NCBI GenBank assembly: GCA_000434055.1
Contig: HF999647.1
Span: forward strand, 48,251 to 112,250
Length of the DNA: 64,000 nt
Reading direction: 5' to 3'
Origin: Ruminococcus sp. CAG:488
Lineage (GTDB): Bacteria > Bacillota > Clostridia > Oscillospirales > Acutalibacteraceae
Notes under the pieces: generated by a model
Database searches by the model: none
Seen by the model: the letters and a program-made list of their open reading frames with translations, nothing else
What the model was told of the DNA's origin: nothing
Translations under genes and position numbers: made by a program
In this document: positions 6,629-62,894 of the stretch, piece after piece
Layout of the letters: every line of letters begins with the position of its first letter
How positions within the stretch are numbered: the stretch's first letter is position 1

Positions 6629-9262
6629 TTATCCCATATTTGCAACTGCATTTGTCAGCAATGAATATGCAGAAGAAATATCATTTGATGTTGCAGACGG
6701 ATTACCGAGAACCGTTCCTGCATTCATGAGCGCAGTTGAATAAGCGTTGAAAGCAGTGGTGCTGTAATCTGCCGAATTATAGGCAGCCAAAATCGCAGCA
6801 TTATAAGCAGTTCGGAGTTCAGTCTTATTTACATAATTTGCATTGATCGTTATGTTATAGTAATTGTTATTTTGTCTTTTTCCTCTGAGCGTGATTGTGT
6901 AAGCGGAAATTGTAAGTTTCTTTGTGCCTTCCGTGCCAAGCTTATTCTGATAATTGAGACTGTTATTATATGCACAACCAACCTTAGCTGAAAGATTTGT
7001 TATTGTTGTTGTCGAACCGTCAACAGTCTGCTTGATATATCCGGAAGCAACGTCGTCGCCCTCAATATCGCACTGCCAATAACCGATTTTAAGATTCGGA
7101 ATTTGATTAAGATTTGTTACACGGCTTGAGTCAACATAGATTGTACCTGTTCCGCCGTTAACGGTGTGAGAATCTTTTGCATTTGATTTATGGCTCCAGC
7201 TTCCGTATTCAACGCCGCCGTTAGTCGTCTTTGTAAACCAATCGCCTATACCTGTATTTGATGAAGGAGCTGAATTCGTAAAGAAATTCTTTTTACAAAT
7301 ATATGAACCGCCTGTTACATTGCTAAAGCCAATTGCATAAAGAATACCCTGATTGAAAACGTCTTTGCTATATGTATGAGCCTGTCTTATTCCTGCGCCG
7401 ATTTCATTTGTATTCGGTGAGTAAACATATGAATAAGCCGTTGCTGTTCTCTTTTCACCGTTTTTAAGGGTATATGTTGCAGTCCAAGTTATTGTTTTTC
7501 CCGAACCTGCGGCAGGTGAAGAATAAAGCTTACCGGATGAAACAGATGTTGAAAGAGTTCCGTTTGATGAGCTGTTTCCGTTTGTATAGCTGACTGTTGC
7601 GTCGCTTACAGAAATGCTGACATCTGTTGCTTTATCGCAATTGAAGAAAATGTTACCTGTTGTTTTAGTTGCACTGTTTGAAAGTGAACCGTCAACCTTA
7701 TTCTCTCTGTCAACATAATATTGGAATGACTTTGTTGAAGAATTTGTGTAAATGGTTTCGGGAACATAGAATGTTGTTGTTACAACACCTATATCTGCTT
7801 TGAGTTCAACATTGATTTTAATCTGAAGTCCCGCATTTACAGAAGCCTGAGAAATGCTGAAGCTTCCTGTTTTTGTCTCAAAACCTGTTCTTGAAGCTGT
7901 GTAAGTATAGTTGCCTGCACCGAGCTTATAATAATTATCCGAGTTGCAAGCTTTGATAACATTGCCGTTTGAGTCCTTAACGGTTACAGATGTGTCTGTT
8001 GAAGGAAGAATAAACTGTACAGTGCTTATTTTTGTATCGGACTTTGTTACAAGGAACGGTTGAGCATAGCAGATACCGCCGTCGCCGAGAACATAAAATC
8101 TGACATATGAACCGATTTCGTTTTCAAACTCATTAAGATCAAATGTTATTGTTTCGTTGTCACGGTTAACCTTCTTTTCGGCAACAACCTTGCCGTCGGC
8201 AACCATTTTTACAACATTTGCATTGTACGGGTTAATGCTGATCTGATTTGTCTCTTTATCAACATTAACTCTGCTGATCATCGGAAATTCACCTTGTGCC
8301 TCAAATCCGTCACCAAGCTCTTGCTCGGTTTTCGCAGTTTTTGAGCATGCAAAGAAGGTTCCGTTTTCCATGCTTGTGCGAATATTTGCCTGAGTATTCT
8401 CGGGCATAACAAAATACTGAGCATTATTTGCAACATCGCCGAAATCATGTGCATCATCTTCGCAGAAGCCCCAAATGTTTCTTCCGAGAGGTGCGGTACG
8501 CTTGAGAGTTTCGTCATAAAGATAGCGGTCATTGTGAGTTCTGTTATCCTTTGTATTGACAAGCTCCATACCGATACATGCCGAGTAATTTAAGAAAAGC
8601 TTTGAAAACTTTGTTACAAACTCAGTATTATAAGTATTTATATCATGTCTGCCCTCTGTCCATTCGCCGACATGGTTGATGTGACAGATACCGCCGGCAG
8701 CCTGACTTTTTTTAATTGCACCCTCGGGCCATTTTGCATCAAGCTCAAGGTCACCGTGACCGCAATCCGCATAATAGCTGTTAACATGGCATTTTGTGGT
8801 TGATGCACCGTTAAGCTCAATACCGAGAGGAATCTCGGTCATACCGTCGCCGCCTCTGTCTGAGCCTGTTGTAATCTGCTGATATCTTTCTTCGGAAAGC
8901 TCATCAATATTTCCGTGTGAAAGATACTGATATCCGAAAATTGAAAGACGTGTCTGATCCTTTGTCCAGGAATAGTTAACTGTACCGTGGTCTGTAAGTG
9001 CAAGAGCCTGGTAGCCGAGTGAATAATATTTCTCAATCATATCGTCAAGTTCAATATCGCCGTCGCTTCTGACGGTATGAACATGAGTTGCGCCCTTATA
9101 TGCCTTCCAGGTGTCCCAATTTACTGTTTCATACGGATTGGTGATATCAAAATCATATTTGCCTATTATGTCGTATGAGGAAGCAAAGGCTGTTGCCGGG
9201 ATATAAGCAATCATGGCAACAGCCATCATTACACTGAGAATTACAGATAATATTTTACGCAT
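6629..9262 (-). CDS. Secreted PHP-domain metal-dependent phosphoesterase, paralog 1, with a roughly 470-aa S/T-rich beta-rich C-terminal extension
   Basis: Signal peptide MRKILSVILSVMMAVAMIAYIPATAFA (start at 9262 chosen because of the GGAGGA RBS; the track ORF extends to 9304). PHP motifs HVHTVRSDGD and ALTDHG are present along with many conserved His. Strongly similar to the ORFs at 10026..12089 and 61428..62894. Confidence 0.75.
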   Translation of the reverse strand: MRKILSVILSVMMAVAMIAYIPATAFASSYDIIGKYDFDITNPYETVNWDTWKAYKGATHVHTVRSDGDIELDDMIEKYYSLGYQALALTDHGTVNYSWTKDQTRLSIFGYQYLSHGNIDELSEERYQQITTGSDRGGDGMTEIPLGIELNGASTTKCHVNSYYADCGHGDLELDAKWPEGAIKKSQAAGGICHINHVGEWTEGRHDINTYNTEFVTKFSKLFLNYSACIGMELVNTKDNRTHNDRYLYDETLKRTAPLGRNIWGFCEDDAHDFGDVANNAQYFVMPENTQANIRTSMENGTFFACSKTAKTEQELGDGFEAQGEFPMISRVNVDKETNQISINPYNANVVKMVADGKVVAEKKVNRDNETITFDLNEFENEIGSYVRFYVLGDGGICYAQPFLVTKSDTKISTVQFILPSTDTSVTVKDSNGNVIKACNSDNYYKLGAGNYTYTASRTGFETKTGSFSISQASVNAGLQIKINVELKADIGVVTTTFYVPETIYTNSSTKSFQYYVDRENKVDGSLSNSATKTTGNIFFNCDKATDVSISVSDATVSYTNGNSSSNGTLSTSVSSGKLYSSPAAGSGKTITWTATYTLKNGEKRTATAYSYVYSPNTNEIGAGIRQAHTYSKDVFNQGILYAIGFSNVTGGSYICKKNFFTNSAPSSNTGIGDWFTKTTNGGVEYGSWSHKSNAKDSHTVNGGTGTIYVDSSRVTNLNQIPNLKIGYWQCDIEGDDVASGYIKQTVDGSTTTITNLSAKVGCAYNNSLNYQNKLGTEGTKKLTISAYTITLRGKRQNNNYYNITINANYVNKTELRTAYNAAILAAYNSADYSTTAFNAYSTALMNAGTVLGNPSATSNDISSAYSLLTNAVANMG

Positions 9263-10025: not shown

Positions 10026-12089
10026 TTATAAGATTCCGAATAAGTATCTGAAAAACGAAATTATATTTTCATAAAAATTTCTGAAACCTGAAGTTGTTTT
10101 TTCGTCTTTTTTATCTTCAGTTTTTTCCTCTTGATTAGGTTCTTTTTCATCCGGAATGTCCTGTGATATTATACTGCTGTATTCACAGTAAACTGACGAA
10201 GTCTTAATACTCTCGTCTTGAGAAACGTTTGAAAGAAGCAATCCTGCCTGTTCTATAATTGCAAGGTCGTCTGTATTTATTACGCTGTCATGGTTACAGT
10301 CAGCAGCAAGTCTCATTGCCGGAGACGGAGTAAGCATACCGTTTATAATAAAAGAAAGTATTGTTGCATCACGACCGTCGTAAATTCCGTCACCGTTGAT
10401 ATCGCCGAATACTACAACCGTATAGGTTTTAAGAACATTTCCTGTTTTATCGTCAACAATTTTTATTTCATCACCGGTTTTAGCTTTTGAAATATCTTCA
10501 ATTTCAAAATGTGTTCCGTTCTTTAAACCTATTGATTTATTAACCGGATCGGAAATATTCTCAAGTATATTAAATCCATAAACCAAATCATTCTGTTTTG
10601 TAAATGAAAGAGGACCGGAATTCTTAACCAACTCTATATCAACTTTTATTTGTAATCCTGCATCAACGGTTGCCTGAGTAACATTTATTGTTCCAACCTT
10701 TGTTTCATAACCGTCTTTGACAACGGTATATGAATATTTACCTGCGGAAACAAGGAAATAATTTTCATTATTTATTGGATCAATAATATTGCCCTGCTCA
10801 TCTTTAAGAGTGAGAGTTGTATCGGAATAAGGAATATTAAACTGGAGTGTGCATTTAGTATACTCTGTTTTTGTTACAAGGAACGGCTGAACATAGCAGA
10901 TTCCGCCTTTACCGAGAATATAGATACGAACATATGAATTGATCTGATTCTCATAATCGTTAAGGTCGAATGTTATTGTATCATTATCGTTTGCAACGCT
11001 CTTTTCACCGATAACATTGCCGTCGGCAACGATTTTTACCGTGTGAGCATTATAAGGATTGATACTGATTTGATTCGTTTCGTTATCAACATTTACTCTG
11101 CTGACCATAGGAAACGGTCCCTGAGCCTCAAAACCGTCGCCGAGTTCCCAGTCATTCTTCGAAGTTTTTGAACATGCAAAGAATGTTCCGTTTTCCATAC
11201 TTGTACGGATATTTGCCTGAGTATTCTTAGGCATTATAAAATACTGAGCATTGTTTTCAACATCGCCGAAATCATGAGCGTCGTCCTCACAGAATCCCCA
11301 AATGTTTCTTCCCTGCGGAGCCGTGATCTTGAGTGTTTCATCATAAAGATATCGGTCATTGCGAGTTCTGTTATCCTTTGTATTAACAAGCTCCATACCG
11401 ATACATGCCGAGTAATTTAAGAAAAGCTTTGAAAACTTTGTTACAAACTCAGTATTATAAGTATTTATATCATGTCTGCCCTCTGTCCATTCGCCGACAT
11501 GGTTGATGTGACAGATACCGCCGGCAGCCTGACTCTTTTTTACCGCATCCTCAGGCCATTTTGCATCAAGCTCAAGGTCACCGTGACCGCAATCCGCATA
11601 ATAGCTGTTAACATGGCATTTTGTGGTTGATGCACCGTTAAGCTCAATACCGAGAGGAACCTCGGTCATACCGTCTCCGCCTCTGTCAGAACCTGTTGTA
11701 ATCTGCTTATATCTTTCTTCGGTCAGCTCATCAACATTGCCGTGTTTTCCGTACTGATAACCAAAGATCGCAAGTCTCTTTTGATCCTTTGTCCATGAAT
11801 AGTTGACTGTACCGTGATCGGTAAGTGCAAGAGCCTGAAAACCGAGAGAATAATATTTTTCAATCATATCGTTAAGCTCAATATCTCCGTCACTTCTTAC
11901 GGTATGAACATGGGTTGCACCTTTATATGCTTTCCATGTGTCCCAATCAATTGTTTCATAAGGATTTGAAATTGTAAAGTCGTATTGTCCAATCGTATCT
12001 CCTGTTGCTGCGAAAGCCTGGATTGTAAGTGCTGCAACGCTTGAAAGAACAAGGACGATACTCAAAAGAATTGATAAAACTTTTTTCAC
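10026..12089 (-). CDS. Secreted PHP-domain phosphoesterase, paralog 2, with a C-terminal type I dockerin (cellulosomal)
   Basis: GTG start with a GGAGGT RBS and a signal peptide. The N-terminal 420 aa are about 85% identical to paralog 1. Dockerin repeats are GDINGDGIYDGRD and DCNHDSVINTDD. Confidence 0.8.
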   Translation of the reverse strand: MKKVLSILLSIVLVLSSVAALTIQAFAATGDTIGQYDFTISNPYETIDWDTWKAYKGATHVHTVRSDGDIELNDMIEKYYSLGFQALALTDHGTVNYSWTKDQKRLAIFGYQYGKHGNVDELTEERYKQITTGSDRGGDGMTEVPLGIELNGASTTKCHVNSYYADCGHGDLELDAKWPEDAVKKSQAAGGICHINHVGEWTEGRHDINTYNTEFVTKFSKLFLNYSACIGMELVNTKDNRTRNDRYLYDETLKITAPQGRNIWGFCEDDAHDFGDVENNAQYFIMPKNTQANIRTSMENGTFFACSKTSKNDWELGDGFEAQGPFPMVSRVNVDNETNQISINPYNAHTVKIVADGNVIGEKSVANDNDTITFDLNDYENQINSYVRIYILGKGGICYVQPFLVTKTEYTKCTLQFNIPYSDTTLTLKDEQGNIIDPINNENYFLVSAGKYSYTVVKDGYETKVGTINVTQATVDAGLQIKVDIELVKNSGPLSFTKQNDLVYGFNILENISDPVNKSIGLKNGTHFEIEDISKAKTGDEIKIVDDKTGNVLKTYTVVVFGDINGDGIYDGRDATILSFIINGMLTPSPAMRLAADCNHDSVINTDDLAIIEQAGLLLSNVSQDESIKTSSVYCEYSSIISQDIPDEKEPNQEEKTEDKKDEKTTSGFRNFYENIISFFRYLFGIL

Positions 12090-12347
12090 GTTTGTACCTC
12101 CGAATTACAAAATATTCCTTATATAATATAACAAAAAAATTTGAATACGTCAACAATTCATTTGTTATGAATCTAACTTTTTACGTTTTATACAAATGAA
12201 ATTTTTGTTTTTTTACTTTTTATAAAATACATTGTGCAGTTTGACTATTTAATATTATTTTATATATCTTTTTTATACAATTCTAATTATATATTATCAC
12301 TAAATCTTCCAAAAGAAATGGTAAAATAGAAAGAAAGAGGTGATTTA

Positions 12348-23411: not shown

Positions 23412-23420
23412 TTCGTGACC

Positions 23421-42691: not shown

Positions 42692-42711
42692 CAAATAATT
42701 TTTGCGAGAGA

Positions 42712-43341
42712 GTGAATCCGGTGTATAAATATATAAAAAGAGCAATGGATTTTGTTGTAGCTTTTTTGCTGCTTATCATCCTCTCGCCGTTAATGCTTGC
42801 CGCTGCGGTTTGCATTGCGGCTAACCGTGACGGACCGGTGCTTTTCAGACAGGAGAGACCCGGAAAAAACGGTAAAATATTTATGCTTTATAAGTTCAGA
42901 ACCATGTCTACAAGGCTGTATGACAAAAACGGACGTGAGCTGAGTGACTTTGAGAGAATGACGAAAATCGGCAGATTTCTCAGAAAAACAAGCGTGGATG
43001 AGCTTCCGCAGCTTTTCAATATTCTGAAAGGCGACATGAGCTTTATCGGCCCCAGACCGCTGCTTACGGAATATCTTAACCTTTATTCTCCCGAGCAGAT
43101 GCGCCGCCATGAGGTCCTGCCCGGAATTTCGGGATGGGCTCAGGTCAACGGGCGCAATACGCTCACATGGAACGAAAAATTCAGTTACGACGTCTATTAT
43201 GTTGACCATTACGGCTTTGGCATGGATATGAAAATTTTCTTTAAAACGATTGAAAATGTTATCCGCCAGGACGGAATCAACAGCGGAAAAGAAAATACTA
43301 TGGAAAAATTCAAAGGGAATAAAGAGTCCGAAAAAGTTTGA
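42712..43341 (+). CDS. Small monotopic phosphoglycosyl transferase (PglC/WbaP C-terminal-domain-like sugar transferase)
   Basis: Re-entrant membrane helix, then PVLFRQERPGKNGKIFMLYKFRTM. Length 209 aa. Confidence 0.85.
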   Translation: MNPVYKYIKRAMDFVVAFLLLIILSPLMLAAAVCIAANRDGPVLFRQERPGKNGKIFMLYKFRTMSTRLYDKNGRELSDFERMTKIGRFLRKTSVDELPQLFNILKGDMSFIGPRPLLTEYLNLYSPEQMRRHEVLPGISGWAQVNGRNTLTWNEKFSYDVYYVDHYGFGMDMKIFFKTIENVIRQDGINSGKENTMEKFKGNKESEKV

Positions 43342-43406
43342 TTTGGATGCACATAAACTTTTTGGAAGGGCTTTAGTAAGTTTACCGAGTGAGAGGATGT
43401 TTCGCA

Positions 43407-44519: not shown

Positions 44520-44544
44520 GTCTTTTTTACAGGAAAGGAACGGA

Positions 44545-45687
44545 ATGATAAACTTTAATTTCGATTTCTATGAAATAGTTGTCTGGGTTGCCACAATTGT
44601 TATGTGCTTGATAGCGGTGGCGGCTCGTTCTCTTCCGCTCAAAGCAAGGGGAGGTCTCGGACAGCCGTTGCCGAATCCCATTGCGGTCCTTCTTCCGATA
44701 GCTTTTTTTGTATCATTTGCAGGCTTGAGAAAAACTATCGGAGACACATTTTTTTATATGTATTCTTTCGAGAATTTGCCTGATAAAAATACAGTTAACA
44801 TTCAGATGATTCTCGACGGTCAAATGTATTCTTTTATTCAAAACCTGATAAGAAATTTTACCGATGATCCGCAGGTATTGATCCTTGTATGCGCTGTAAT
44901 TGCTTTGGTTCCTCCGCTGATAATATTGTATATATATTCTGCCCCGTTTGAACTTTCGATATTTCTGTTTTTTGCTTACGGATATCTCGGAGGAATGATG
45001 GACGGCATGAGACAGTATATGGCAGCAGCGATACTGTTGTTCGGAACAAGATTTTTGTTCTCGTTAAAACGAGGCTCGTTTTTTAAATATGCAATCTTCG
45101 TCCTGTTGGCGGCATGTATGCACAACAGTGCCTTAATAATGCTGGTAGTATTCTTTGTCGTTCGACGAAAGGCATGGAAAATGAGTTCATATATTATTGT
45201 GCTCGGAAGCATTGTTGTTACTGTTGCTTTTGACGCAATTCTTCCTTCTTTCCTGAACGCGCTTAAAGAAACGTCCTATGAGGGATATGCGAATAACGGA
45301 TGGTTTACAGACGGAAAAGAAGGCGGCAGCAGTCTGTTCAGGGCAATTGTTGCAGCCGCGCCGATTGTTGTTGCCTACCTGAACAGAGGCCGTATGAACA
45401 GGCTCGGCCATATCGGGGACATTTTAATAAATATGGCTTTCCTGAACGCTGCAATATATATTGTCGCAAGCTACAACTGGATTTTTGCAAGACTGGCAAT
45501 TTATTTGAGTGTATATTATATTATACTCACCGGTTGGGTAGTAACCTACGCCGTTAAACCGCAAGACAGGGCAATTTACACAACCGGAACGGTTATTCTG
45601 TTCTTCCTGTTTTCACGATTTATGGCATATCAGATAAATATGTATCAGTCGGATTATTTCTTACCGGGAAGAAAACTTTTCAGATGA
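44545..45687 (+). CDS. EpsG/Wzy-like polysaccharide polymerase (polytopic membrane protein)
   Basis: About 10 transmembrane segments; EpsG-family-like. The alternative upstream start at 44506 overlaps the GT4 gene. Confidence 0.6.
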   Translation: MINFNFDFYEIVVWVATIVMCLIAVAARSLPLKARGGLGQPLPNPIAVLLPIAFFVSFAGLRKTIGDTFFYMYSFENLPDKNTVNIQMILDGQMYSFIQNLIRNFTDDPQVLILVCAVIALVPPLIILYIYSAPFELSIFLFFAYGYLGGMMDGMRQYMAAAILLFGTRFLFSLKRGSFFKYAIFVLLAACMHNSALIMLVVFFVVRRKAWKMSSYIIVLGSIVVTVAFDAILPSFLNALKETSYEGYANNGWFTDGKEGGSSLFRAIVAAAPIVVAYLNRGRMNRLGHIGDILINMAFLNAAIYIVASYNWIFARLAIYLSVYYIILTGWVVTYAVKPQDRAIYTTGTVILFFLFSRFMAYQINMYQSDYFLPGRKLFR

Positions 45688-45688
45688 G

Positions 45689-46846
45689 GTGTTTGCAATG
45701 AAATATTTCCTGTTTAATCATGCAGGCAGCAAAAATCACGGCTGCGAAGCACTTGTCAGGGGAACAGTGAATATAATTGAAAACAGTGATAAAAATGCAG
45801 AATTTATTCTATCCTCTAATGATTCTCAAGCTGATGAAGTGATTGATGATATTGAAATAAAACCGGCAAAAAGAAGAGAGTTGTCATTGCCCGAAAGGAT
45901 AATTGCCGCACTTGATTTGAAAATCAACAAGTCGGAAATATATGCACTCGAAAAAATGTATTCGCCGATAGTTTCAGATGCTGCCGATTGCGACATCTGT
46001 TTGTCCATAGGCGGCGACACATACTGTTATGGCGATAATCACGAGATCCAGGTTCTTACAAGAGAGCTGAAAAAAACAGGCAAAAAGACCGTTCTCTGGG
46101 GAGCGTCAATCGGCGAGACCGATCTTACCGACAAAAAGCTGGAGAGCCTCGGTGATTTTGATGCGATATTTGCAAGAGAACCGATAACCTATGAACTGCT
46201 GAAAGAAAAAAATGCAAACGAAAATATTTATTTGTTTTCCGATCCTGCCTTTTGCATGGAGCGAGAAAATGTCGAACCGATCGAAGGCTTCACAAGAGAG
46301 AACACGCTCGGCTTCAATATAAGTCCCCTTGTTGCAAAGGGTGATCCGAAAAAAAGAGAAATTGCAGAGGATTTTATTTCTTTTGTTTTGGAAAACACAA
46401 CGCTGAAAATTTTGCTTGTCCCTCATGTGGTTGAGGAGAATAACAATGATTATGATTTTATGAAACCCATTTATGAAAAGTTTGCGGAAACGGAAAGAAT
46501 TGCGATTCTTCCGCCGACGCTCAACGCGACGCAATATAAGGGCTATATAGCCAACACAAGGTTTTTTGTCGGAGCGAGGACGCATGCGACAATCGCCGCA
46601 TATTCGAGCGGTGTTCCGACAATTGTCTTGGGGTACAGTGTTAAAGCGAGAGGCATTGCAAAGGATGTTTTCGGCGAAGAAAAATTTGTTTTGAACTTTA
46701 ATTCGCTTACGGACTCAAAGGTTTTGGAAAAGGAATTTTTGAAGTTGGTTGTCAACGAAAAGGAAATCAGGAAAGAACTGATGGGAAGTATTCCGCTTAG
46801 AATGAGAAGCGCAATGGAAGCGGGAGAAATGCTTTTGAAAATCTGA
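45689..46846 (+). CDS. Polysaccharide pyruvyl transferase (CsaB/WcaK family)
   Basis: N-terminal HAGSKNHGCEAL motif typical of PS_pyruv_trans. Length 385 aa. Confidence 0.75.
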   Translation: MFAMKYFLFNHAGSKNHGCEALVRGTVNIIENSDKNAEFILSSNDSQADEVIDDIEIKPAKRRELSLPERIIAALDLKINKSEIYALEKMYSPIVSDAADCDICLSIGGDTYCYGDNHEIQVLTRELKKTGKKTVLWGASIGETDLTDKKLESLGDFDAIFAREPITYELLKEKNANENIYLFSDPAFCMERENVEPIEGFTRENTLGFNISPLVAKGDPKKREIAEDFISFVLENTTLKILLVPHVVEENNNDYDFMKPIYEKFAETERIAILPPTLNATQYKGYIANTRFFVGARTHATIAAYSSGVPTIVLGYSVKARGIAKDVFGEEKFVLNFNSLTDSKVLEKEFLKLVVNEKEIRKELMGSIPLRMRSAMEAGEMLLKI

Positions 46847-46860
46847 CAGGAGCTGGTATT

Positions 46861-48045
46861 TTGAAAAAGAAAATACTTTTTGTCATTCCTTCTATGCGAA
46901 GCGGCGGTGCAGAAAAAAGCCTTTTGACCGTATTAACGCTGTTTGATTATGAAAAATACGAGGTTGACCTTTTGTGCTTTCGACATGACGGACTTTTCTT
47001 TGAGAAAATCCCGAAAGAGGTCAACATTATCGGCGGAAGCAAGAACTATGAAATATTTGACGGCGATGCCGTCCGGGCAGTTAAGTTTTTTCTGAAAAAA
47101 GGGAAAATTCTTTCTGCTGTTGACAGGTGGAAATATTCAAGGATTTATTCTGCTGCCGACACTCACGAGGTCGAAGAAATTCAGTGGAAATATCTAAAAA
47201 AACAGCTTCCGAAAATAAAAAAAGAATATGATTGTGCGATAGGATATCTTGAAGGAAACGCAAATCGATTTGTTTGCGAAAATGTGAGAGCCGCGCACAA
47301 GATTTGTTATATACATAATGATATCGAAAAGCTTGGCTTTGACAGAGAAGTTTGCGAAAAAACTTTTTCCGCGGCAGATAAAATTGTAACTGTCTCGGCG
47401 GAGTGCGAAAAAAGCCTGTTTAAAAATTTTGAGAAATTCTCAAAAAAAATCTGCGTGATCGAAAATATCACAAGCAGAAAAATTGTTTTTGAAGAAAGCA
47501 AGAAATTTGATGCATATCCGGAAAGAAAAGAAACCGTTCTTTGCACGGTAGGAAGATTTTTTGAACAAAAAAACATTTCCCTTGCCGTCGATGCTTGCGG
47601 CGAGCTGATAAAAAGAGGAAAAAACATTAAATGGTATCACATCGGTGACGGCCCGCTGAAGGGAGAAACGGAAAAACAAATTTCTGAAAATAATTTGCAA
47701 AATATATTTATTTTGCTCGGTGAAAAATCGGAACCGTATCCTTATATGGGACAGTGTGATATTTATGTCCAGCCGTCGTTGTACGAGGGTAAGTCAATAG
47801 CAATCGACGAAGCAAAATGTCTTTGCAGACCGATAATTGTTACGAATTTTTCAACCGTGCATGATCAGATAACCGACGGATTAAACGGATTGATCTGCCG
47901 AATGGATAAAAAGGATATGGCAGATAAAATCGAGCTGCTTATTGACAGCAAAGAGGAAAGAAAAAAGCTCATCGAAAACTTAAAAAGAGAAAAAATAGGA
48001 AATGAGAACGAGATTAAGAAGCTTTATGCAATAATTGACGGGTGA
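46861..48045 (+). CDS. Glycosyltransferase (GT4-like), TTG start
   Basis: IPSMRSGGAEKSLLTVL and a C-terminal E-x7-E-like region (YEGKSIAIDEAKCLCRPII). Confidence 0.7.
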   Translation: MKKKILFVIPSMRSGGAEKSLLTVLTLFDYEKYEVDLLCFRHDGLFFEKIPKEVNIIGGSKNYEIFDGDAVRAVKFFLKKGKILSAVDRWKYSRIYSAADTHEVEEIQWKYLKKQLPKIKKEYDCAIGYLEGNANRFVCENVRAAHKICYIHNDIEKLGFDREVCEKTFSAADKIVTVSAECEKSLFKNFEKFSKKICVIENITSRKIVFEESKKFDAYPERKETVLCTVGRFFEQKNISLAVDACGELIKRGKNIKWYHIGDGPLKGETEKQISENNLQNIFILLGEKSEPYPYMGQCDIYVQPSLYEGKSIAIDEAKCLCRPIIVTNFSTVHDQITDGLNGLICRMDKKDMADKIELLIDSKEERKKLIENLKREKIGNENEIKKLYAIIDG

Positions 48046-48055
48046 GGAAACGCAA

Positions 48056-49219
48056 ATGACAGTAATCGTGATTCTTCTTTTAATAATAATTGCAATACTC
48101 GGCTACGATACGTGGGAGGATTTATTTACATGGCTCAGCCGTATAAAAATCGGACAGCTCCCCGAGAATGAGTGGCGAGAAAAAACACAGAAAATTTTAC
48201 TTAAATGGATTGTGAAGGGCGCTCCGGAGGTTCGCATAAACGATAACAGAAAAGTTAATTTTATAAAAAAAATAAACGAGTACGGTAAAATTACCTCCGT
48301 AACATATTGGCAGGATGCCGCCCTTTTGAAAGCAGCCGACGGAATAAAAAAAGACGTCGGAACAGAGGTAAAAGGCCTTGCGTCGAGATATATTTCTCAA
48401 GATGACGGCGAGTGGAAAACTCTTCCGAAAAGAATGGACAGCGCAATGTTTTGCTATGAGCTTCTTTCAAGCAAGTACATTGACAGCGAAGCAATCAAGC
48501 CTGCAATGGAAAACACGGCATATATGCTCAAGCTTTCCGCAGAGAAATACGGTTCAATACCGTATAATGAAGATTTCCCGAAATACAGACTTGTTGACAC
48601 AATAGGAATGGCGTGCCCGTTTTTGATTAAATATGCCGTTACTTACGGCGAGGACGAATATATTTCCCTCGCAATGGATCAGATAAGAGAATACAGAAAA
48701 AACGGCATTGAAGAAAAAACGAAATTACCCTTCCACGGCTTTGGTGAAGACTCACTTGAACCGCTCGGCATATGCGGCTGGGGCAGAGGCTGTGCATGGT
48801 GGGCAATAGGACTGACTGACAGCCTCAGGGCAATGCTTGAATCGGACGGTCACAACCGTGAAAAGGCCGAGCTTTTGAAGCTTTCTGTGGAATTCTTTGA
48901 TGCAATGAAAAAATACATTCACGAGGACGGAACCGTTGATCGAATTGTTTTAAGCTTTTCGATACAGGACAGCTCGGCGTGTGCGATGCTTTCTTATTGC
49001 TATGCATATATGGCGAAGCTTCTTAAAAACGAGGAATATAAGGCTATTTCCGAGAAGATGAGAGAAAAGCTGAAATCGGTAACAAGACGAAACGGCACAG
49101 TTGATTTTTCTCAGGGAGATACCCACGGAATAGGGTTTTATTCGGAAAAGCTTTGCATAGTACCCGCCGCGCAGGGATTTACAATCGCTGCCGACAATCT
49201 TTTAAATGAATTGAACTAA
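48056..49219 (+). CDS. Membrane-anchored six-hairpin glycosidase-like protein (GH88/GH105-like, tentative)
   Basis: N-terminal transmembrane segment followed by an alpha-helical repeat domain containing GWGRGCAWWAIGL. Start chosen after a GAGGAA RBS. Confidence 0.35.
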   Translation: MTVIVILLLIIIAILGYDTWEDLFTWLSRIKIGQLPENEWREKTQKILLKWIVKGAPEVRINDNRKVNFIKKINEYGKITSVTYWQDAALLKAADGIKKDVGTEVKGLASRYISQDDGEWKTLPKRMDSAMFCYELLSSKYIDSEAIKPAMENTAYMLKLSAEKYGSIPYNEDFPKYRLVDTIGMACPFLIKYAVTYGEDEYISLAMDQIREYRKNGIEEKTKLPFHGFGEDSLEPLGICGWGRGCAWWAIGLTDSLRAMLESDGHNREKAELLKLSVEFFDAMKKYIHEDGTVDRIVLSFSIQDSSACAMLSYCYAYMAKLLKNEEYKAISEKMREKLKSVTRRNGTVDFSQGDTHGIGFYSEKLCIVPAAQGFTIAADNLLNELN

Positions 49220-49239
49220 AACAAAAAGGAGGAGCAGGT

Positions 49240-49998
49240 ATGATTGATCTTCACTGTCACATTCTTCCCGGAATGGATGACGGATCGAAAAATATGGATG
49301 TGTCTGTGCAGATGTGCCGTATTGCCAGACAGAACGGAATTAAACATATCGTTTGCACTCCGCATATAACAACAGTGGGGGATATAGACAGTTTTGTAAA
49401 GATAAGGAACGAAAAGCTCCGCGATCTGCAGGGAATAATAAACAATCTCGGTCTCGGAATAACACTCTATCCCGGGGCAGAGGTCTATGTCGATGACGAT
49501 ATTTTCTTCTCGACCGATCTCAGACGCCTTGCGATAAACGGCAGCAGATATATTCTTGTGGAATTTGCATTCAGAGATGTATCAATGAAAAGAATTGTCA
49601 ACTATCTTAATGCGCTGATTGATATGGGACTTATTCCCATTGTTGCGCACCCGGAAAGATATGAGTATTTCCAGTTTGACTATGACGAGGTCAACACGCT
49701 GATAAGAAACGGCGTGCTGTTTCAGATAAATGCCTCAAGTCTTGCGAGTCTTGACGGCCCGCAGGAGTTTGAGCTTGCCTACGCAATGGCATATACGGGA
49801 GCGGCGTCATTCATTGCGACCGACGCACATTCATCCCATTACAGAATGAATGATCTGATGAATATGATAAATTTCTTCCCGCCCGATATTTCTCAGTTTA
49901 ATATGCAGATGATGGTTCACGATGCGGCAAAATGTGTGCTCACGGACAAGGAAGTGCCGCTTATTAACAGAGGAGAAATATATAAAAGAGGTTTTTGA
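49240..49998 (+). CDS. PHP-family protein-tyrosine phosphatase CpsB/YwqE (capsule regulation)
   Basis: MIDLHCHILPGMDDGS and CTPH motifs; 252 aa. Confidence 0.88.
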   Translation: MIDLHCHILPGMDDGSKNMDVSVQMCRIARQNGIKHIVCTPHITTVGDIDSFVKIRNEKLRDLQGIINNLGLGITLYPGAEVYVDDDIFFSTDLRRLAINGSRYILVEFAFRDVSMKRIVNYLNALIDMGLIPIVAHPERYEYFQFDYDEVNTLIRNGVLFQINASSLASLDGPQEFELAYAMAYTGAASFIATDAHSSHYRMNDLMNMINFFPPDISQFNMQMMVHDAAKCVLTDKEVPLINRGEIYKRGF

Positions 49999-50045
49999 GG
50001 TTGACTATTAACTAAATATAAACTATAATAAAAAATGGAGATGAT

Positions 50046-51782
50046 TTGAAAATGCAGGAACTGGATGTCGGCAAGAATATATATTATAATGAATCAGGTC
50101 CCTCGCTTGATATGGGTCGATTAGCGAAAAATCTCATATCAAAGCTTTGGATTATATTGCTTGTCGGTGCTATTTTCTCCGGTGCCGCATTTGCAATTGC
50201 CAAGGCTACTTATGTTGAATCCTACAGATCTTCCATGACATTGGGCTTTATGACGACTCAGTACGTTATTGTTAAGGATTATTCTAACAGCAAGGATTCG
50301 ACGACGCAGTACAAGCAGGAGACAAAGTTTTCCTCGGGCAATCAAATTTCATATTATCAGTATCTTATCAAAGGCGACGAAATGCTTTATAAGATTCAAA
50401 AAACTCTTGCAGAGGACGAGGTCGGAAAGGAATACTCCACCTCATTTATCGAGGGGAGCTTATCAATTGAGGAAACAGGAATAGACGGATTTTTCCAGGT
50501 TAACGTTACAAGTACGGATCAGGGCTATTGCGAAAGAGCCTTGAAGGTCGTTCTTAAAGAGTTCCCCGAATATGTTCAGAGCTATGACAACACAATTTCG
50601 ATAAAGGTTGTCAAAAATCCGACGGCACCGACAATTGCAAACTCTGACGATGCAACGACAAAGGCAATTTACGGCTTTGCTATCGGCGCAGCGATAGTTG
50701 CATTTATTATTTTCATTATAACAATCACAACAAATACGGTTCTTACGCTTGACAATTTAAGACGCGACGTCAATGTTACCGTTCTCGGTTCTGTGCCGTT
50801 GCTGGAGAAAAAATCGGGATTGTTTAATCAGAAGAAAAAATCGCCGCAGGGCTCTCTGCTGATTACGGATACGTCAAAGGTGAGCTTTGCCTTTGTGGAA
50901 AGCTTTAAGGCGATAAGAACAAAAATTGAAAATGTCAAAGCCGAAAAAGGCTACAAGGCATTTGTTGTTACGAGTACCTATGAGGATGAGGGTAAAACGA
51001 CCGTTGCAGTAAATATTGCGTGCTCACTCGCCCAGAAGGGAAAGTCGGTTCTTCTTATCGACAGTGACCTCAGAAAGCCCGCGGTTCTTCATGCCGTCGG
51101 CGTTAAGAGCGACACACGTTACGGTCTTATCCCGATAATCAAGGGAACGTCAACCTATGTTGATTCAATTAAATTTATCAAATCTCTCGGTATTTTCGTA
51201 TTGCCGACGGGAGGTATCTCGCTGAAATCCACCGAGGTTCTTGATACGGATAAGGTTAAGGCGGTTGTTGAGCAGGCTCGCAAGGAGTTTGACTATATTA
51301 TCATTGATTCGCCTCCGGCTCATGTCGTGTCGGATAGCCTTGTTATTGCACCGCTTGCAGACGGAATAATTTATAATATTCGCCGCGACTATGCAAAGGT
51401 TTCGGAAATCAACCGTACTCTTGATGAAATAAGGGGCGCGGATATTGATATCATCGGAGCCGTATTTACAATGAGTGCCGGCGAAGAAAACAGCAGATAT
51501 TATCGTCGTAAGGGTTATCTGCGTTACGGCGGATACTATGGCAGATATGGCAGGTACGGCCGCAAAAAGAAGAACAGCTCCGGCGGCGGATACGGCTACG
51601 GTTACGGCTATGGAAGCGGCTACGGCTATGGCGGATACGGCTACGGCGGCTATGGTTACGGAAACGGCTACGGTTATGGCTACGGCTACGGAAGCGGTTA
51701 CGGCTATGGCGGAGGTTACGGCTATGGAAATACCCCGCAGAACAAAGAACCGGAAAAGGGAAACAAGATAGATAATGAATAA
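50046..51782 (+). CDS. Fused Wzz-type chain-length modulator and BY-family tyrosine kinase (CpsC/CpsD-like) with a roughly 60-residue Gly-Tyr repeat C-terminal tail
   Basis: Two transmembrane segments flank a periplasmic Wzz-like region. The kinase domain has Walker A (EGKTT) and Walker B (IIIDSPP) motifs. The C-terminus is (GYG)n rich, with about 27 Tyr. Confidence 0.8.
   Translation: MKMQELDVGKNIYYNESGPSLDMGRLAKNLISKLWIILLVGAIFSGAAFAIAKATYVESYRSSMTLGFMTTQYVIVKDYSNSKDSTTQYKQETKFSSGNQISYYQYLIKGDEMLYKIQKTLAEDEVGKEYSTSFIEGSLSIEETGIDGFFQVNVTSTDQGYCERALKVVLKEFPEYVQSYDNTISIKVVKNPTAPTIANSDDATTKAIYGFAIGAAIVAFIIFIITITTNTVLTLDNLRRDVNVTVLGSVPLLEKKSGLFNQKKKSPQGSLLITDTSKVSFAFVESFKAIRTKIENVKAEKGYKAFVVTSTYEDEGKTTVAVNIACSLAQKGKSVLLIDSDLRKPAVLHAVGVKSDTRYGLIPIIKGTSTYVDSIKFIKSLGIFVLPTGGISLKSTEVLDTDKVKAVVEQARKEFDYIIIDSPPAHVVSDSLVIAPLADGIIYNIRRDYAKVSEINRTLDEIRGADIDIIGAVFTMSAGEENSRYYRRKGYLRYGGYYGRYGRYGRKKKNSSGGGYGYGYGYGSGYGYGGYGYGGYGYGNGYGYGYGYGSGYGYGGGYGYGNTPQNKEPEKGNKIDNE
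51571..51735 (+). repeat. Imperfect GGCTAY/GGN hexanucleotide tandem repeat encoding the (GYG)n tail
   Basis: About 165 bp of GGCTACGGYTAYGGN units. Confidence 0.8.
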
Positions 51783-51796
51783 ATTTCCGAAAAGAA

Positions 51797-52945
51797 GTGT
51801 ATCAAATGAACAAAAGAATTTATCTTTCCCCACCGTGCATGAACGGAACGGAGATTGAATTTATCAACGAGGCCTTTCAGACAAACTGGATTTCCCCGTT
51901 CGGACCTAATTTGACGGGATTTGAAAAAGAAATGTGTGAATATGTCGGAGCAAAGTACAGCGTTGCGCTTGCTTCAGGTACCGGCGCAATACACATGGGC
52001 TTGAAGTATCTCGGAGTTGAATGCGGCGATATTGTTTTCTGTTCGGACTTCACCTTTTCGGGAAGCTGCAATCCTGTTGCTTACCTCGGAGCCAAGCTTG
52101 TTTTCATTGATTCCGATTACGAGAGCTTCAACATGGATCCCGATGCGCTGAAAATTGCCTTTGAAAAGTATGATGCAATGGGCAAGCTGCCGAAAGCGGT
52201 TATTGTTGTTGATCTTTACGGCAACAGCGCAAACTACGAAAAAATCATTCCGCTTTGCAAAAAATACAATGTTCCTATTCTTGAAGACGCTGCCGAAGCT
52301 CTCGGCACAACCTATAAAGGAAAAAAATGCGGAACATTCGGCAAGGTAAGCGCGCTGTCCTTTAACGGAAATAAAATTGTAACTACCTCCGGCGGCGGAA
52401 TGGCTCTTTCCGATGACCCGGAAGCTATTAAAAAGATACATTTTTGGTCAAATCAGTCCAAGGAAAACGTTAATTACTATCTTCATAATGAAATCGGTTA
52501 TAACTACAGAATGTCCAATATTTGTGCAGGTATCGGCAGGGGACAGCTTAAAAATATGGACGAAAGAATTGCCGCAAGAGTTCGAAATTATGAGTTTTAT
52601 AAAAAGACATTTGCCGATCTTCCGGTGAAAATGGCTCCCGTTCTTGACGGCTGCAAGCCGAATTTTTGGCTTAGCGTTGTGACAATAAACGAGGACTGTG
52701 ATGTTACCCCGGACGAGATAATCAAGGAGCTGGAGGATAACAATATTGAATCAAGACGCGCATGGAATCCGATGCACAACCAGCCTATCTTTTCCGAAAT
52801 GGATTTCATAAGCTGCAAGCAGGGTGAAAGCGTCGGAAATGATATTTTCCGCCGCGGAGTTTGTTTGCCCTCGGGAACGGCAATGACCGAGGAGGATCTT
52901 GAAAGAGTAGCTTCGGTTTTCAGAGGAGCTTTTGAAAATAAATAA
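51797..52945 (+). CDS. DegT/DnrJ/EryC1-family PLP-dependent sugar aminotransferase (likely UDP-4-keto-6-deoxy-HexNAc 4-aminotransferase)
   Basis: 382 aa with an aspartate-aminotransferase fold pattern and a conserved Lys region (SFNGNKIVTT). Confidence 0.85.
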   Translation: MYQMNKRIYLSPPCMNGTEIEFINEAFQTNWISPFGPNLTGFEKEMCEYVGAKYSVALASGTGAIHMGLKYLGVECGDIVFCSDFTFSGSCNPVAYLGAKLVFIDSDYESFNMDPDALKIAFEKYDAMGKLPKAVIVVDLYGNSANYEKIIPLCKKYNVPILEDAAEALGTTYKGKKCGTFGKVSALSFNGNKIVTTSGGGMALSDDPEAIKKIHFWSNQSKENVNYYLHNEIGYNYRMSNICAGIGRGQLKNMDERIAARVRNYEFYKKTFADLPVKMAPVLDGCKPNFWLSVVTINEDCDVTPDEIIKELEDNNIESRRAWNPMHNQPIFSEMDFISCKQGESVGNDIFRRGVCLPSGTAMTEEDLERVASVFRGAFENK

Positions 52946-60463: not shown

Positions 60464-61020
60464 TGTCAAGGATAATTCTTGCTTCCGCTTCGCCGAGACG
60501 CAGAGAACTGATGGAGCTTGCAGGATATGACTTTGAGGTGATCTGCGCTGATATTGTTGAGGCCGTTCCCGAAAATGTTCAGCCGCAGGAGGTTGTTATG
60601 TCGCTCGCACTGCAAAAGGCGCAGGCGGTTGCGGCAGAGAATGAAGATGCGGTAGTTGTCGGTTCGGATACGGTAGTTGCACTGGACGGAAAAATTCTCG
60701 GCAAGCCTCATTCGGAGTCGGAGGCTTGCGAAATGCTTCGTTTGCTTTCGGGCAGGACTCATAAGGTCTTCACGGGCGTCGCGGTAGTCGGTGACGGCAA
60801 GGAGAAAAGCTTCTTTGATGAAACCGACGTGGAATTTTACCCGCTCAGCGAGGATGAAATAAAGAAATATGTTGCAACGGGCGAGCCGATGGACAAGGCA
60901 GGCGCATACGGAATTCAAGGAAAAGGCTCGGTACTTGTTAAAAAAATCAACGGCGATTTTTTTAATGTAATGGGATTACCGATTGCGAAACTATACAGGG
61001 AGATGAGTGATTTTGTTTAA
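60463..61020 (+). CDS. maf: Maf-like nucleoside triphosphate pyrophosphatase (septum formation protein)
   Basis: N-terminus IILASASPRRRELM. The start overlaps the nudix stop (TGATG). Confidence 0.88.
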   Translation: MSRIILASASPRRRELMELAGYDFEVICADIVEAVPENVQPQEVVMSLALQKAQAVAAENEDAVVVGSDTVVALDGKILGKPHSESEACEMLRLLSGRTHKVFTGVAVVGDGKEKSFFDETDVEFYPLSEDEIKKYVATGEPMDKAGAYGIQGKGSVLVKKINGDFFNVMGLPIAKLYREMSDFV

Positions 61021-61282
61021 TTATTTTTTGAACACTTTGGCTATCAGCGTCAGCGAGCTTGAGCCGGTGCAGAACAACAATGATGAGAAACAAAAGGCGA
61101 TATGGATAATCGCACTCGTTGCCGTCGTTATAATTTGCATTGTGCTCAGTCAGATAAAATTTGACATAAGCGGAAAAATAAAAGCAAAAAAAGAGGAAAA
61201 CGCAAAGAAAAAGATTGAAAGAGAACGCAATGAAGAGCTTGAACGCCTTCATGAAATAAAAAGAAAAAATCAAAGAAAATAA
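61007..61282 (+). CDS. Small single-pass membrane protein with a Lys/Glu-rich coiled-coil tail
   Basis: One transmembrane segment (IWIIALVAVVIICIVL) and a same-strand terminator directly downstream. The competing minus-strand ORF 60962..61273 has no such support. Confidence 0.4.
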   Translation: MILFNYFLNTLAISVSELEPVQNNNDEKQKAIWIIALVAVVIICIVLSQIKFDISGKIKAKKEENAKKKIERERNEELERLHEIKRKNQRK

Positions 61283-61290
61283 TAAAATTC

Positions 61291-61326
61291 AGCCGAATCC
61301 GATAAAAGATTCGGCTTGTTTTTTTA
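61291..61326 (+). terminator. Intrinsic terminator
   Basis: Stem AGCCGAATC, loop, GATTCGGCT, then TTGTTTTTTT. Confidence 0.7.
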
Positions 61327-61366: not shown

Positions 61367-61395
61367 TTGACAAATCCTGCAAAGTCAGACATAAT
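61367..61395 (+). promoter_or_regulatory. Sigma-A promoter for PHP paralog 3 (TTGACA, 17-bp spacer, CATAAT)
   Basis: Sequence TTGACAAATCCTGCAAAGTCAGACATAAT. Confidence 0.45.
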
Positions 61396-61427
61396 AGAAA
61401 AAAGACCTTTTTGAGGAGGGGAACATA

Positions 61428-62894
61428 ATGGCAAAGAAAATTTTAGCAGTATTTTTGAGCATTGTTCTTTCCGCACAGCTTTTTGTAATCGGTGTATCGG
61501 CAAAAGGGAAAAAGTACATCATTGTAAATCCCTATGAGAAGGTTGATTGGGATGAGTGGGGAAGCTACAAATTTCAGCCGCACTGCCATACAAACGCCAG
61601 CGACGGATATCTCACGGTTAAAGAATCTGTTCAGATGCACTATGACCTCAACTATGATATTGTTGCGCTGACGGATCACGGAACGATAAACAAGGGCTGG
61701 AATCAGAAGCCCGATCTGGTTCCGCTTATCAGACTTGTTAAGTATGAAAGAACGCACATGGCTCCCATTATTCCGTTGACAGATGAGGAATATGAATCCT
61801 ATCAGAGCGGAACTGCGCCTTCTGCCGAGAGAACGCATAAGAACGGAATGTTGGATGTTCCGCAGGGCATAGAGCTTAACATGGCAACGCCCAAGGCAGA
61901 CTGTCACCTTACGGGATGTTTTTCGGATTACGGTCAGGGACTTGCCGGCGTTTACGGCGATTATGAGACCCCGAGCAAGGGCGTAAGAGAAGCCGGCGGA
62001 ATTTCGATGCTCTCTCATGTCGGCGAATATGTTTATCCCGATAAGGACAGTGCAGATCATGTCGGTCAGAAGGTTGACGATTATTATGCGAACAAGTTTG
62101 CACGTCTTTTTCTTGACAATGCGGGCTCAAGCTTAGGCATTGGCATCAACAGTGCAACCGATGCGCATACACGTTGCGACAGAATTCTCTATGATCAGAT
62201 TCTTCAAAAGACAATTCCGAACGGCGTCGTTCCGTGGGGATTTGCTTTCTCGGATTCTCATAATGTAAGATCTCTCAATGATGCCTACACAATGCTTATG
62301 ATGAAGGATTTCGACATGAACAATTTCCGTGCAAGCATGGAAAACGGTTGGAGCTTTGCCGTATCGCATTATTCAAACGGCGTTGAGCTTAACGGCATGG
62401 AGGAAATGCCCGGCTTTGATGAGGACAAGGTTTATGAGGAGAAGCTCTACCTTCAGGATAATACGCCGATGGTAACTCGAATCGACGTTGACCGGGAGAA
62501 CGGTTCAATCAAGATTGAGGGCACAAACTTTGATCGCATCACATGGGTTTCAAACGGTAACGTTATCAAGCGTGAGGAAAATATCACAAGCGGAACCGCA
62601 ATGCTGGATCTCTATAGCGATGACTTGCTCGACGATCCTTATCTTTATATAAGATTTTATATTACGGGCGAGAACGGTATTTGTTACGCTCAGCCGTTCG
62701 TGCTCAGCGTTGAGGGCGAGGAATTTACTCCCGTTGATGTTCCCGAAACACACGATGTTTCAACATTTCTGCGTGGACTTGCAACCGTAACGGATTGGCT
62801 TTTCTTCCGATTCAATCCGCTTATCTGGCTGTTTAAATATGTTGCACTCGGATACAATGTATTCGACAGATTTTTCCATCCGTATTCAAATTAA
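61428..62894 (+). CDS. Secreted PHP-domain phosphoesterase, paralog 3 (488 aa), with an aromatic-rich hydrophobic C-terminus
   Basis: Signal peptide; PYEKVDWDEWGSYKFQPHCHTNASDGY...ALTDHG; conserved C-terminal beta module ending ICYAQPF. RBS GGAGGGG. Confidence 0.75.
   Translation: MAKKILAVFLSIVLSAQLFVIGVSAKGKKYIIVNPYEKVDWDEWGSYKFQPHCHTNASDGYLTVKESVQMHYDLNYDIVALTDHGTINKGWNQKPDLVPLIRLVKYERTHMAPIIPLTDEEYESYQSGTAPSAERTHKNGMLDVPQGIELNMATPKADCHLTGCFSDYGQGLAGVYGDYETPSKGVREAGGISMLSHVGEYVYPDKDSADHVGQKVDDYYANKFARLFLDNAGSSLGIGINSATDAHTRCDRILYDQILQKTIPNGVVPWGFAFSDSHNVRSLNDAYTMLMMKDFDMNNFRASMENGWSFAVSHYSNGVELNGMEEMPGFDEDKVYEEKLYLQDNTPMVTRIDVDRENGSIKIEGTNFDRITWVSNGNVIKREENITSGTAMLDLYSDDLLDDPYLYIRFYITGENGICYAQPFVLSVEGEEFTPVDVPETHDVSTFLRGLATVTDWLFFRFNPLIWLFKYVALGYNVFDRFFHPYSN

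Follow-up and report, generated by a model that had tools for sequence, protein, structure and literature searches.

Three predicted exported PHP-domain proteins of Ruminococcus sp. CAG:488, one of them bearing a type I dockerin

PHP enzymes are, in the textbook view, cytoplasmic proteins such as polymerase proofreading domains, histidinol phosphatase and CpsB. Sb-PDE of Sphingobium sp. TCM1 carries a Sec signal peptide, shown by Edman sequencing to be cleaved off, and its mature form, a Zn-containing PHP protein of ~45 kDa with nine predicted ligands, acts better on bis(p-nitrophenyl) phosphate than on p-nitrophenyl phosphate (PMC5460133). McbA, a PHP-like enzyme of the periplasm, hydrolyses carbaryl and needs its His residues to do so, and the characterised CehA/McbA members hydrolyse carbamate ester pesticides (PMC8292978). 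The starch specialist Ruminococcus bromii builds a cohesin-dockerin complex, the amylosome, and its 26-27 dockerin proteins include many proteases and 'membrane proteins of unknown function' (PMC4611034, PMC12663171); ten were termed putative membrane proteins (PMC4611034), and dockerin proteins without a known function make up about a third of the amylosome (PMC12663171). Here we describe a stretch of 64,000 nucleotides from Ruminococcus sp. CAG:488 (the window; contig HF999647.1, positions 48,251 to 112,250, forward strand) that encodes three related PHP-domain proteins, paralogs A, B and C, of which C bears a dockerin.

We propose, with moderate confidence, that A, B and C are Sec-exported, surface-displayed PHP phosphoesterases, probably scavenging organophosphates or nucleic acids. 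Their PHP assignment is solid; their catalytic chemistry, substrate, export and cohesin binding we infer. An earlier reading of the same DNA from its letters alone (the sequence-only reading) had held that PHP domains are normally cytoplasmic and that an extracellular PHP family is not a described class. The exported Sb-PDE and the periplasmic McbA contradict the general part of that statement, whereas neither the dockerin fusion nor this family was found described. In the papers searched, among them ones on amylosomes, cellulosomes and mucinolysomes and the R. bromii supplements, no dockerin protein with a PHP or phosphoesterase module came up, and the sole paper with both PHP and dockerin terms concerns an unrelated C. 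thermocellum gene. A protein built like C, whose ends are a signal peptide and a hydrophobic helix, could have been labelled 'putative membrane protein'.

The PHP core of the three paralogs

We searched the six-frame translation of the window with a family hidden Markov model (HMM). Matches were confined to three open reading frames (ORFs; E 1e-208 to 1e-252), the same three that the sequence-only reading had grouped as one family, and no further member was detected in the window.

61428..62894, forward strand: paralog A, 488 aa; signal peptide, PHP barrel, beta-sandwich, hydrophobic/amphipathic C-terminal tail; family HMM match 61398-62891
6629..9262, reverse strand: paralog B, 877 aa; signal peptide, PHP barrel and beta-sandwich, PEGA-like module, immunoglobulin (Ig)-like array, three-helix bundle; family HMM match 6632-9319
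10026..12089, reverse strand: paralog C, 687 aa; signal peptide, PHP barrel and beta-sandwich, PEGA-like module, linker module, dockerin, acidic linker, C-terminal amphipathic helix; family HMM match 10029-12104

A, B and C have a common layout, in which a signal-peptide-like N-terminus is followed by a ~310-aa PHP barrel and a ~80-aa beta-sandwich with GICY(A/V)QPF at its end. Alignment over ~396 residues gives identities of 35-37% between paralog A and the other two. Between B and C, identity amounts to 79.5% in the first 440 residues and 41.7% across the next ~75, after which their tails are unrelated. The motifs HxH...SDG, TDHG and GICY(A/V)QPF, quoted earlier as marks of the family, were all found in the sequences. 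The core maps as follows.

61515..62462, forward strand: PHP barrel of A, aa ~30-345, with ligands H52, H54, D59, H84, E149, H160, H197, D276 and H278
62469..62711, forward strand: C-terminal beta-sandwich of A ending GICYAQPF, aa 348-428, strands in the model
7952..9151, reverse strand: PHP barrel and beta-sandwich of B, aa ~38-437; PF02811 28.7 bits; NF038032 aligned over 55-393
10779..11978, reverse strand: PHP barrel and beta-sandwich of C, aa ~38-437; PF02811 30.1 bits; NF038032 aligned over 55-394, 45.6 bits

We modelled A with AlphaFold2 on a 42-sequence alignment (predicted local distance difference test, pLDDT, 87.6; predicted template-modelling score, pTM, 0.87). The model contains an N-terminal helix corresponding to the signal sequence, a barrel at residues ~30-345, a separate beta-sandwich at 348-428 and two C-terminal helices of lower confidence, and its core is predicted to form a distorted (beta/alpha)7 barrel. 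Foldseek comparison of the model returned 3e38 (BVU_3505; E 4e-10), the nearest two-domain structural match, together with 2anu, RNase AM, Cv1693 and EndoQ. Likewise, profile and HMM matches of the core were exclusively to PHP families. Against PF02811 (gathering score 26.4 bits), B (28.7) and C (30.1) score above the threshold and A, at 22.0 bits, below it; these are weak matches, to the N-terminal motifs only. The curated model NF038032 (CehA_McbA_metalo; cutoff 80 bits) gave 27.3 bits for A, 44.0 for B and 45.6 for C, all below the cutoff, and is the top NCBIfam match of B and C over nearly its full length (3-300 of 315). A glycoside hydrolase (GH) or other non-PHP fold for the core was rejected on the fold searches, which found no GH fold.

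The nine ligand residues listed above for A are invariant or near-invariant in 42 homologs. Among 150 family representatives with a pairwise identity of at most 50%, each ligand is 86-98% conserved, and all nine are retained in 97 by automated alignment. Their order, HxH, D, H, E, H, H, DxH, is canonical, and order and local motifs match those of the L. lactis histidinol-phosphate phosphatase (HPP; alignment in the supplement of PMC5460133). Further near-invariant residues are Y36 and W41 (in an NPYxxVDW motif), D83, D251-R252, D256 and G307 in addition to Q422-P-F424 in the beta-sandwich; Q422, P423 and F424 are conserved in 124-134 of the 150 representatives. Together, the fold matches and the complete ligand set support the PHP domain claimed by the sequence-only reading, and the His/Asp motifs are kept in orthologs and distant relatives alike. 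Neither of the two outcomes that this reading had named as refuting it, a non-PHP fold and His motifs lost from orthologs, was thus observed.

Ligand conservation also bears on whether the unit is an enzyme at all. Many relatives are giant, multi-Ig, adhesin-like proteins, and 53 of the 150 representatives are without at least one ligand in the automated alignment, as might be found if the unit were a non-catalytic metal- or ligand-binding module serving as an adhesin head. Most of these 53, however, are fragments, or have one ligand off through a shift at the loosely aligned E149 or H160, and A, B and C keep all nine. Invariant D83, D251, R252 and D256 would moreover be consistent with a conserved active site. 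We hold a non-catalytic role to be very improbable.

Export, tethers and domain partners

The following signals lie around the starts of A and C; promoter-like sites, ribosome-binding sites (RBS) and terminator were read from the sequence.

61428..61502, forward strand: predicted Sec signal peptide of A, aa 1-25, hydropathy maximum 2.59, helix 2-23 in the model, putative cleavage between VSA and K
61367-61395, forward strand: promoter-like TTGACA-17-CATAAT of A, a consensus match only
61413-61421, forward strand: RBS of A, GAGGAGGGG
61291..61326, forward strand: terminator-like hairpin and T-run at the end of the upstream unit
12097..12153, reverse strand: promoter-like TTGACG-17-TATATT of C (12153-12125) and GGAGG RBS before its GTG start

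In all three paralogs the N-terminus has Lys/Arg and reaches a hydropathy maximum of 2.4-2.6 (19 residues) before VSA followed by K, or AFA followed by S/A. By hydropathy and cleavage-like motifs they look Sec-like, as the earlier signal-peptide claim had it, and A, B and C are predicted to be Sec-exported. For B, ATG 9262 is the likely start because a GGAGG lies 8 nt upstream of it; the alternative GTG 9304 would add 14 residues before the signal-like segment. Orthologs of B are 860-895 aa long. Each of the three genes has its own promoter-like hexamer pair and GGAGG RBS, which suggests that they are expressed independently. The hairpin at 61291-61326 appears to close the upstream unit, so that A would be monocistronic. 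An Rfam scan of the window for a leader or riboswitch returned one tRNA and nothing else.

Beyond the shared unit the three proteins diverge.

62757..62849, forward strand: two hydrophobic/amphipathic C-terminal helices of A, aa 444-474, model pLDDT ~65
7718..7945, reverse strand: PEGA/Ig-like module of B, aa ~440-515, 41.7% identical to that of C, strands in the model
6824..7717, reverse strand: Ser/Thr/Asn-rich tandem beta-sandwich (Ig-like) array of B, aa ~516-813
6632..6823, reverse strand: C-terminal three-helix bundle of B, aa ~814-877, helices at 390-450 of the tail model, FIVAR-like by appearance
10545..10772, reverse strand: PEGA/Ig-like module of C, aa ~440-515, weak PEGA match (E 0.013), aligning with that of B
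10236..10418, reverse strand: type I dockerin of C, aa ~558-618, with two Ca-loop repeats, GDINGDGIYDGRD and DCNHDSVINTDD, ~33 residues apart
10029..10235, reverse strand: acidic Glu/Lys-rich linker and terminal helix of C, ...GFRNFYENIISFFRYLFGIL

In A, the tail of ~45 residues is conserved among orthologs and has a hydropathy of 1.08, under the value taken as typical of a transmembrane segment; its two helices are a possible surface or membrane tether. B extends 440 residues beyond the PHP unit, the last 357 of which are 12.9% Thr, 12.3% Ser and 11.5% Asn. An AlphaFold2 model of this tail (pLDDT 88.6) displays tandem beta-sandwiches followed by the three-helix bundle. Foldseek comparison of the tail for a carbohydrate-binding module (CBM) found generic adhesin, pilin and S-layer Ig arrays only, with template-modelling scores <0.25. 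PF07554 is recorded in some B-related proteins and is not significant in B. The Ig/PEGA-like module, described before as an addition peculiar to C, is in fact common to B and C.

The type I dockerin reported for C proved sound. PF00404 (Dockerin_1) matches residues 562-614 with 30.5 bits against a gathering score of 22.9, both Ca2+-binding loop-helix repeats are in place, and solved dockerins in the PDB are also matched (best E 3.7e-5). A homologue search with the dockerin alone returned two fragments only. The acidic linker and terminal amphipathic helix (ending FFRYLFGIL) that come after the dockerin are kept in C orthologs at 50-98% identity, and distant relatives stop at the dockerin. Such a position of the dockerin, away from the C-terminus and ahead of a helix that may interact with the membrane, is unusual.

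The family reaches far beyond the window. Orthologs of A, at 60-93% identity, occur in ~30 species-level genomes. Among those with a name, Ruminococcus sp. CAG:563 is the nearest, and many others are metagenome-assembled genomes (MAGs) labelled Acutalibacteraceae or Oscillospiraceae; we found no literature on Ruminococcus sp. CAG:563. An exhaustive profile search collected 1,570 clusters at 50% identity with E <=1e-3, 314 of them with E <=1e-30, and a tblastn search of PLSDB plasmids with the core gave no match. In a related genome (L008), A-type genes stand in tandem at 4442-5899 and 5929-7389, ~77-78% identical to the ortholog P0005, which shows that the A-type paralog is still duplicating.

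Family matches usually begin at residue ~30-45 or are embedded in surface proteins of 1,000-3,400 residues. Signal-like N-termini were scored in 113 of 139 representatives by a crude rule, and the partner domains Flg_new, Big_2, SLH, CWB2, autotransporter, cohesin and dockerin are surface modules. The signal-like N-termini, the position of the domain start and the surface partners suggest that the family is surface-displayed. A survey for dockerin-PHP fusions, as had been recommended, yielded dozens of 90%-identity clusters with both PF02811 and PF00404, 38-98% identical to C, and the fusion is conserved in many relatives of C; their source names are 'hypothetical protein' or 'PHP domain-containing protein' only. 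Cohesin domains occur in 3 of 30 long members, including P0271 and P0275. The PHP-like family is thereby present on both the cohesin and the dockerin sides of cohesin-dockerin systems.

Candidate functions and gene neighbourhoods

Fusions to purple-acid-type, alkaline-phosphatase or 5'-nucleotidase domains occur in four of the 30 long members. In P0271, P0275 and P0294, Pur_ac_phosph_N and Metallophos are joined to the PHP-like unit, and P0291 (2260 aa) reads choice_anch_I, PHP-like, Alk_phosphatase, Big_4, Metallophos and 5_nucleotid_C. P0291, a predicted giant surface protein, resembles a multi-phosphatase 'scavenging machine'. Since fusions to phosphatases usually join steps of one process, they would point to extracellular breakdown of organophosphates and nucleotides; the domain fusions favour phosphate or nucleotide scavenging over glycan-specific roles. 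The substrates put forward in the sequence-only reading (phosphorylated glycans, teichoic-acid-like polymers, extracellular nucleic acids) had been guesses. A phosphodiesterase or nuclease activity also fits the characterised structural neighbours RNase AM, EndoQ, PolX exonuclease and Cv1693, as well as Sb-PDE.

In the mechanism we propose, the (beta/alpha)7 barrel, packed on the family-specific beta-sandwich, would bind three divalent metals through its nine His/Asp/Glu ligands. By analogy with all structurally characterised PHP enzymes, a metal-bridging hydroxide would attack the phosphoester, with the third metal stabilising the leaving group. We favour a phosphodiester or nuclease-type step that would feed phosphate and nucleoside scavenging, and in the fusions the PHP-like unit may add a diesterase or nuclease step that the monoesterases lack. 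The catalytic unit would be common to the paralogs and their surface attachment would differ: A may be held by its short hydrophobic/amphipathic C-terminal tail and B by an Ig-like stalk with a helical bundle at its end, and the dockerin of C would plug into a cohesin of a host scaffoldin, C having a terminal amphipathic helix as well.

Several observations weigh against this proposal. Across 82 loci no neighbours, such as pst/pho or nucleoside-transporter genes, proved to be conserved beyond close relatives. A cohesin to which C could bind was not found among the window ORFs scanned. The convergence of the nine residues on one trinuclear metal site in space is assumed from homology. The best NCBIfam model for 43 of 45 diverse representatives is CehA/McbA (all sub-threshold, best E 1e-16), whose characterised members cleave carbamate esters rather than phosphoesters, and the two closest structures, TM0559 and BVU_3505, are functionally uncharacterised. 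Finally, the phosphatase fusions are found in just the four long members named above.

Accessory esterases in cohesin-dockerin complexes are often dockerin-tagged, so that the dockerin of C would also suit CehA/McbA-type esterases or amidases, whose targets would be carboxyl or carbamate esters such as the acyl groups of glycans from the diet or the host. The near-complete alignment of B and C to NF038032 speaks for such enzymes, as does the exported McbA, with its PHP-like, His-dependent hydrolysis of carbaryl (PMC8292978). Scores of 27-46 bits against a cutoff of 80, and E 1e-16 as the best among the 45 representatives, nevertheless place the family far from that model; fusion partners are phosphatases or nucleotidases, never esterases or carbohydrate-active enzymes (CAZymes), and the remaining structural neighbours are all phosphoesterases or nucleases. 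Esterase activity is therefore unlikely in our view.

The sequence-only reading had filed the family under cellulosomes and fibre degradation, and this part found no support, with nothing to tie the genes to cellulose or to polysaccharide degradation: Ruminococcus sp. CAG:563 and MAGs of the Acutalibacteraceae are the closest genomes, the window ORFs scanned include no cellulase and hold glycogen, exopolysaccharide (EPS) and housekeeping genes instead, and GH domains occur in 0 of 30 long family members. R. bromii itself belongs to the Acutalibacteraceae in GTDB. Relatives labelled with that family, and the dockerin of C, could be taken to mean that the proteins are glycan-phosphate phosphatases beside a putative host polysaccharide-degrading complex, removing, for instance, starch C6/C3 monoesters or phosphodiester cross-links and clearing the way for amylases. 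The third of the R. bromii amylosome made up of dockerin proteins of unknown function (PMC12663171) would offer room for them, and one family member carries a CBM96. Against this, A, B and C have no starch-binding CBM, the tail of B being a generic Ig array; no long member is fused to GH13 or another CAZyme; the ~1,570 clusters include many architectures unconnected to starch; and A, B and C sit amid housekeeping genes. Such glycan phosphatases seem decidedly unlikely to us.

A broader form of this idea is that the dockerin-tethered PHP phosphoesterase truly belongs, as an accessory enzyme, to amylosome- or cellulosome-like complexes of gut Oscillospirales, where it would strip starch C6/C3 phosphates or clear phosphodiester polymers or extracellular DNA coating the substrate. 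We give it a low probability. If true, it would bring a new catalytic class, neither glycosidase nor esterase nor protease, to cohesin-dockerin machines, and a first function to ~1,570 clusters of secreted two-domain PHP proteins.

The genes around A, B and C in the window code for a patatin-like phospholipase, a YgjV-family membrane protein, an M6-like metallopeptidase, NUDIX and Maf proteins and a pyridoxal phosphate (PLP) enzyme. These and the remaining features that we placed are as follows.

5732-6571, forward strand: patatin-like phospholipase with DUF6363, adjoining B
9468-9998, forward strand: YgjV-family inner-membrane protein, between B and C
12348-13883, forward strand: M6 (immune inhibitor A-like) metallopeptidase, 511 aa, with signal peptide and HETAH motif, divergent from C
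61007-61282, forward strand: small ORF of up to 91 aa between maf and A, with one hydrophobic segment and a Lys/Glu-rich tail, then the terminator-like hairpin
2966-5433, forward strand: dnaN and a recF-like gene, left end of the window
24165-26225, reverse strand: penicillin-binding protein
34168-35589, reverse strand: starch/glycogen synthase, glycogen metabolism
37976-39907, reverse strand: GlgB-type branching enzyme with CBM48, glycogen metabolism
40817-52945, forward strand: exopolysaccharide/capsule-like cluster, a same-strand ORF run of which two ORFs were scanned
40817-42691, forward strand: CapD-like Polysacc_synt_2 protein, first of the EPS-like run
50046-51782, forward strand: 578-aa protein with P-loop ATPase matches (AAA_31, CbiA, ParA), in the EPS-like run

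Three different surface tethers, a patatin-like phospholipase and an M6 peptidase adjoining B and C, an EPS-like cluster in the same window, and monocistronic genes with their own promoter-like sites would all agree with cell-envelope housekeeping phosphodiesterases, which would trim or recycle polymers of the cell's own surface (teichoic or lipoteichoic acid, capsule) or the head groups of its phospholipids. The 82 loci, however, reveal no conserved linkage to wall-polymer genes, the patatin neighbour is without an obvious signal peptide, and the fusions indicate enzymes of phosphate and nucleotide scavenging. We regard envelope housekeeping as quite improbable, and continue to favour exported phosphoesterases that scavenge organophosphates or nucleic acids.

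Comparison with a related genome (L080) suggests how the B/C locus may have arisen. There, one C-type gene lies between fba and the patatin gene, which directly follows the PHP-dockerin gene, and the M6 metallopeptidase is not at the equivalent position. Because L080 has a single C-type gene, the B/C tandem with its intervening YgjV-family gene looks like a local rearrangement in the lineage of the window. The gene order in L080 makes it probable that the ORFs at 16733-24143 are parA/parB, gidA/gidB and mnmE; if so, the B/C locus is close to the chromosomal replication origin. We also considered a holin link to A. A holin gene (Holin_SPP1) lies upstream of an A ortholog in another locus (L081). 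The link was rejected, since the small ORF that precedes A in the window is no relative of that gene.

The analysis outlines a large, almost unannotated and putatively exported branch of PHP proteins, in which a fixed unit of barrel and beta-sandwich is combined with nearly every known anchoring device, dockerins and cohesins included. If its members are phosphodiesterases or nucleases, they would point to a widespread harvest of phosphate and nucleosides by gut anaerobes from extracellular nucleic acids and other organophosphates, and some of the dockerin proteins counted in the 'unknown' third of amylosome-type complexes would gain a function. The family lends itself to testing, as its members are single-chain proteins, predicted to be soluble, with clear ligand mutants.

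Relation to known systems

Sb-PDE is, like A, B and C, a signal-bearing PHP protein and provides a precedent for exported PHP phosphodiesterases. Unlike the family, it comes from a Gram-negative soil bacterium and is without a dockerin or surface modules. Its residues 55-307, derived by optical character recognition so that letters may err, scored no better against three family HMMs (-3 to +0.7 bits) than unrelated HPPs did, and its N- and C-terminal peptides were not found among the proteins collected in the analysis. The attempt to relate Sb-PDE to the family by sequence was thus rejected, as homology past generic PHP motifs was not detectable.

CehA/McbA provides the best curated model, with an alignment over nearly the whole of it, and McbA is also exported with PHP-like His residues. 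In contrast to this likeness, the family scores far below the cutoff, and the catalytic His of McbA lie at ~467-504 in a protein with an N-terminal transmembrane region.

TM0559 (2anu) and BVU_3505 (3e38) are 'PHP-like metal-dependent phosphoesterases' from structural genomics, 13-19% identical to the family. They comprise 224 and 343 residues, respectively, against ~400 in the family, and both are without a dockerin, Ig stalk or tail. A sequence profile reaches them through the N-terminal HxH...DH motifs only (E 1e-4 to 6e-3). 3e38 is a solved two-domain PHP-like protein from the gut bacterium Bacteroides vulgatus. RNase AM (YciV/TrpH), the Cv1693 pAp phosphatase and EndoQ are characterised PHP nucleases or nucleotidases, cytoplasmic and 10-20% identical; they are without the beta-sandwich and the NPYxxVDW N-terminal motif of the family.

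The 'Doc' proteins of the R. bromii amylosome and the dockerin proteome of R. flavefaciens share with C the combination of a signal peptide and a dockerin on a non-glycosidase module. The papers searched mention no PHP or phosphoesterase module in such proteins, which is what C has. Together, these comparisons of sequence set the family apart from Sb-PDE, CehA/McbA, TM0559 and BVU_3505. The PHP superfamily was well known; what is new here is an uncharacterised PHP family, predicted to be exported, with a previously unreported association with dockerins and cohesins.

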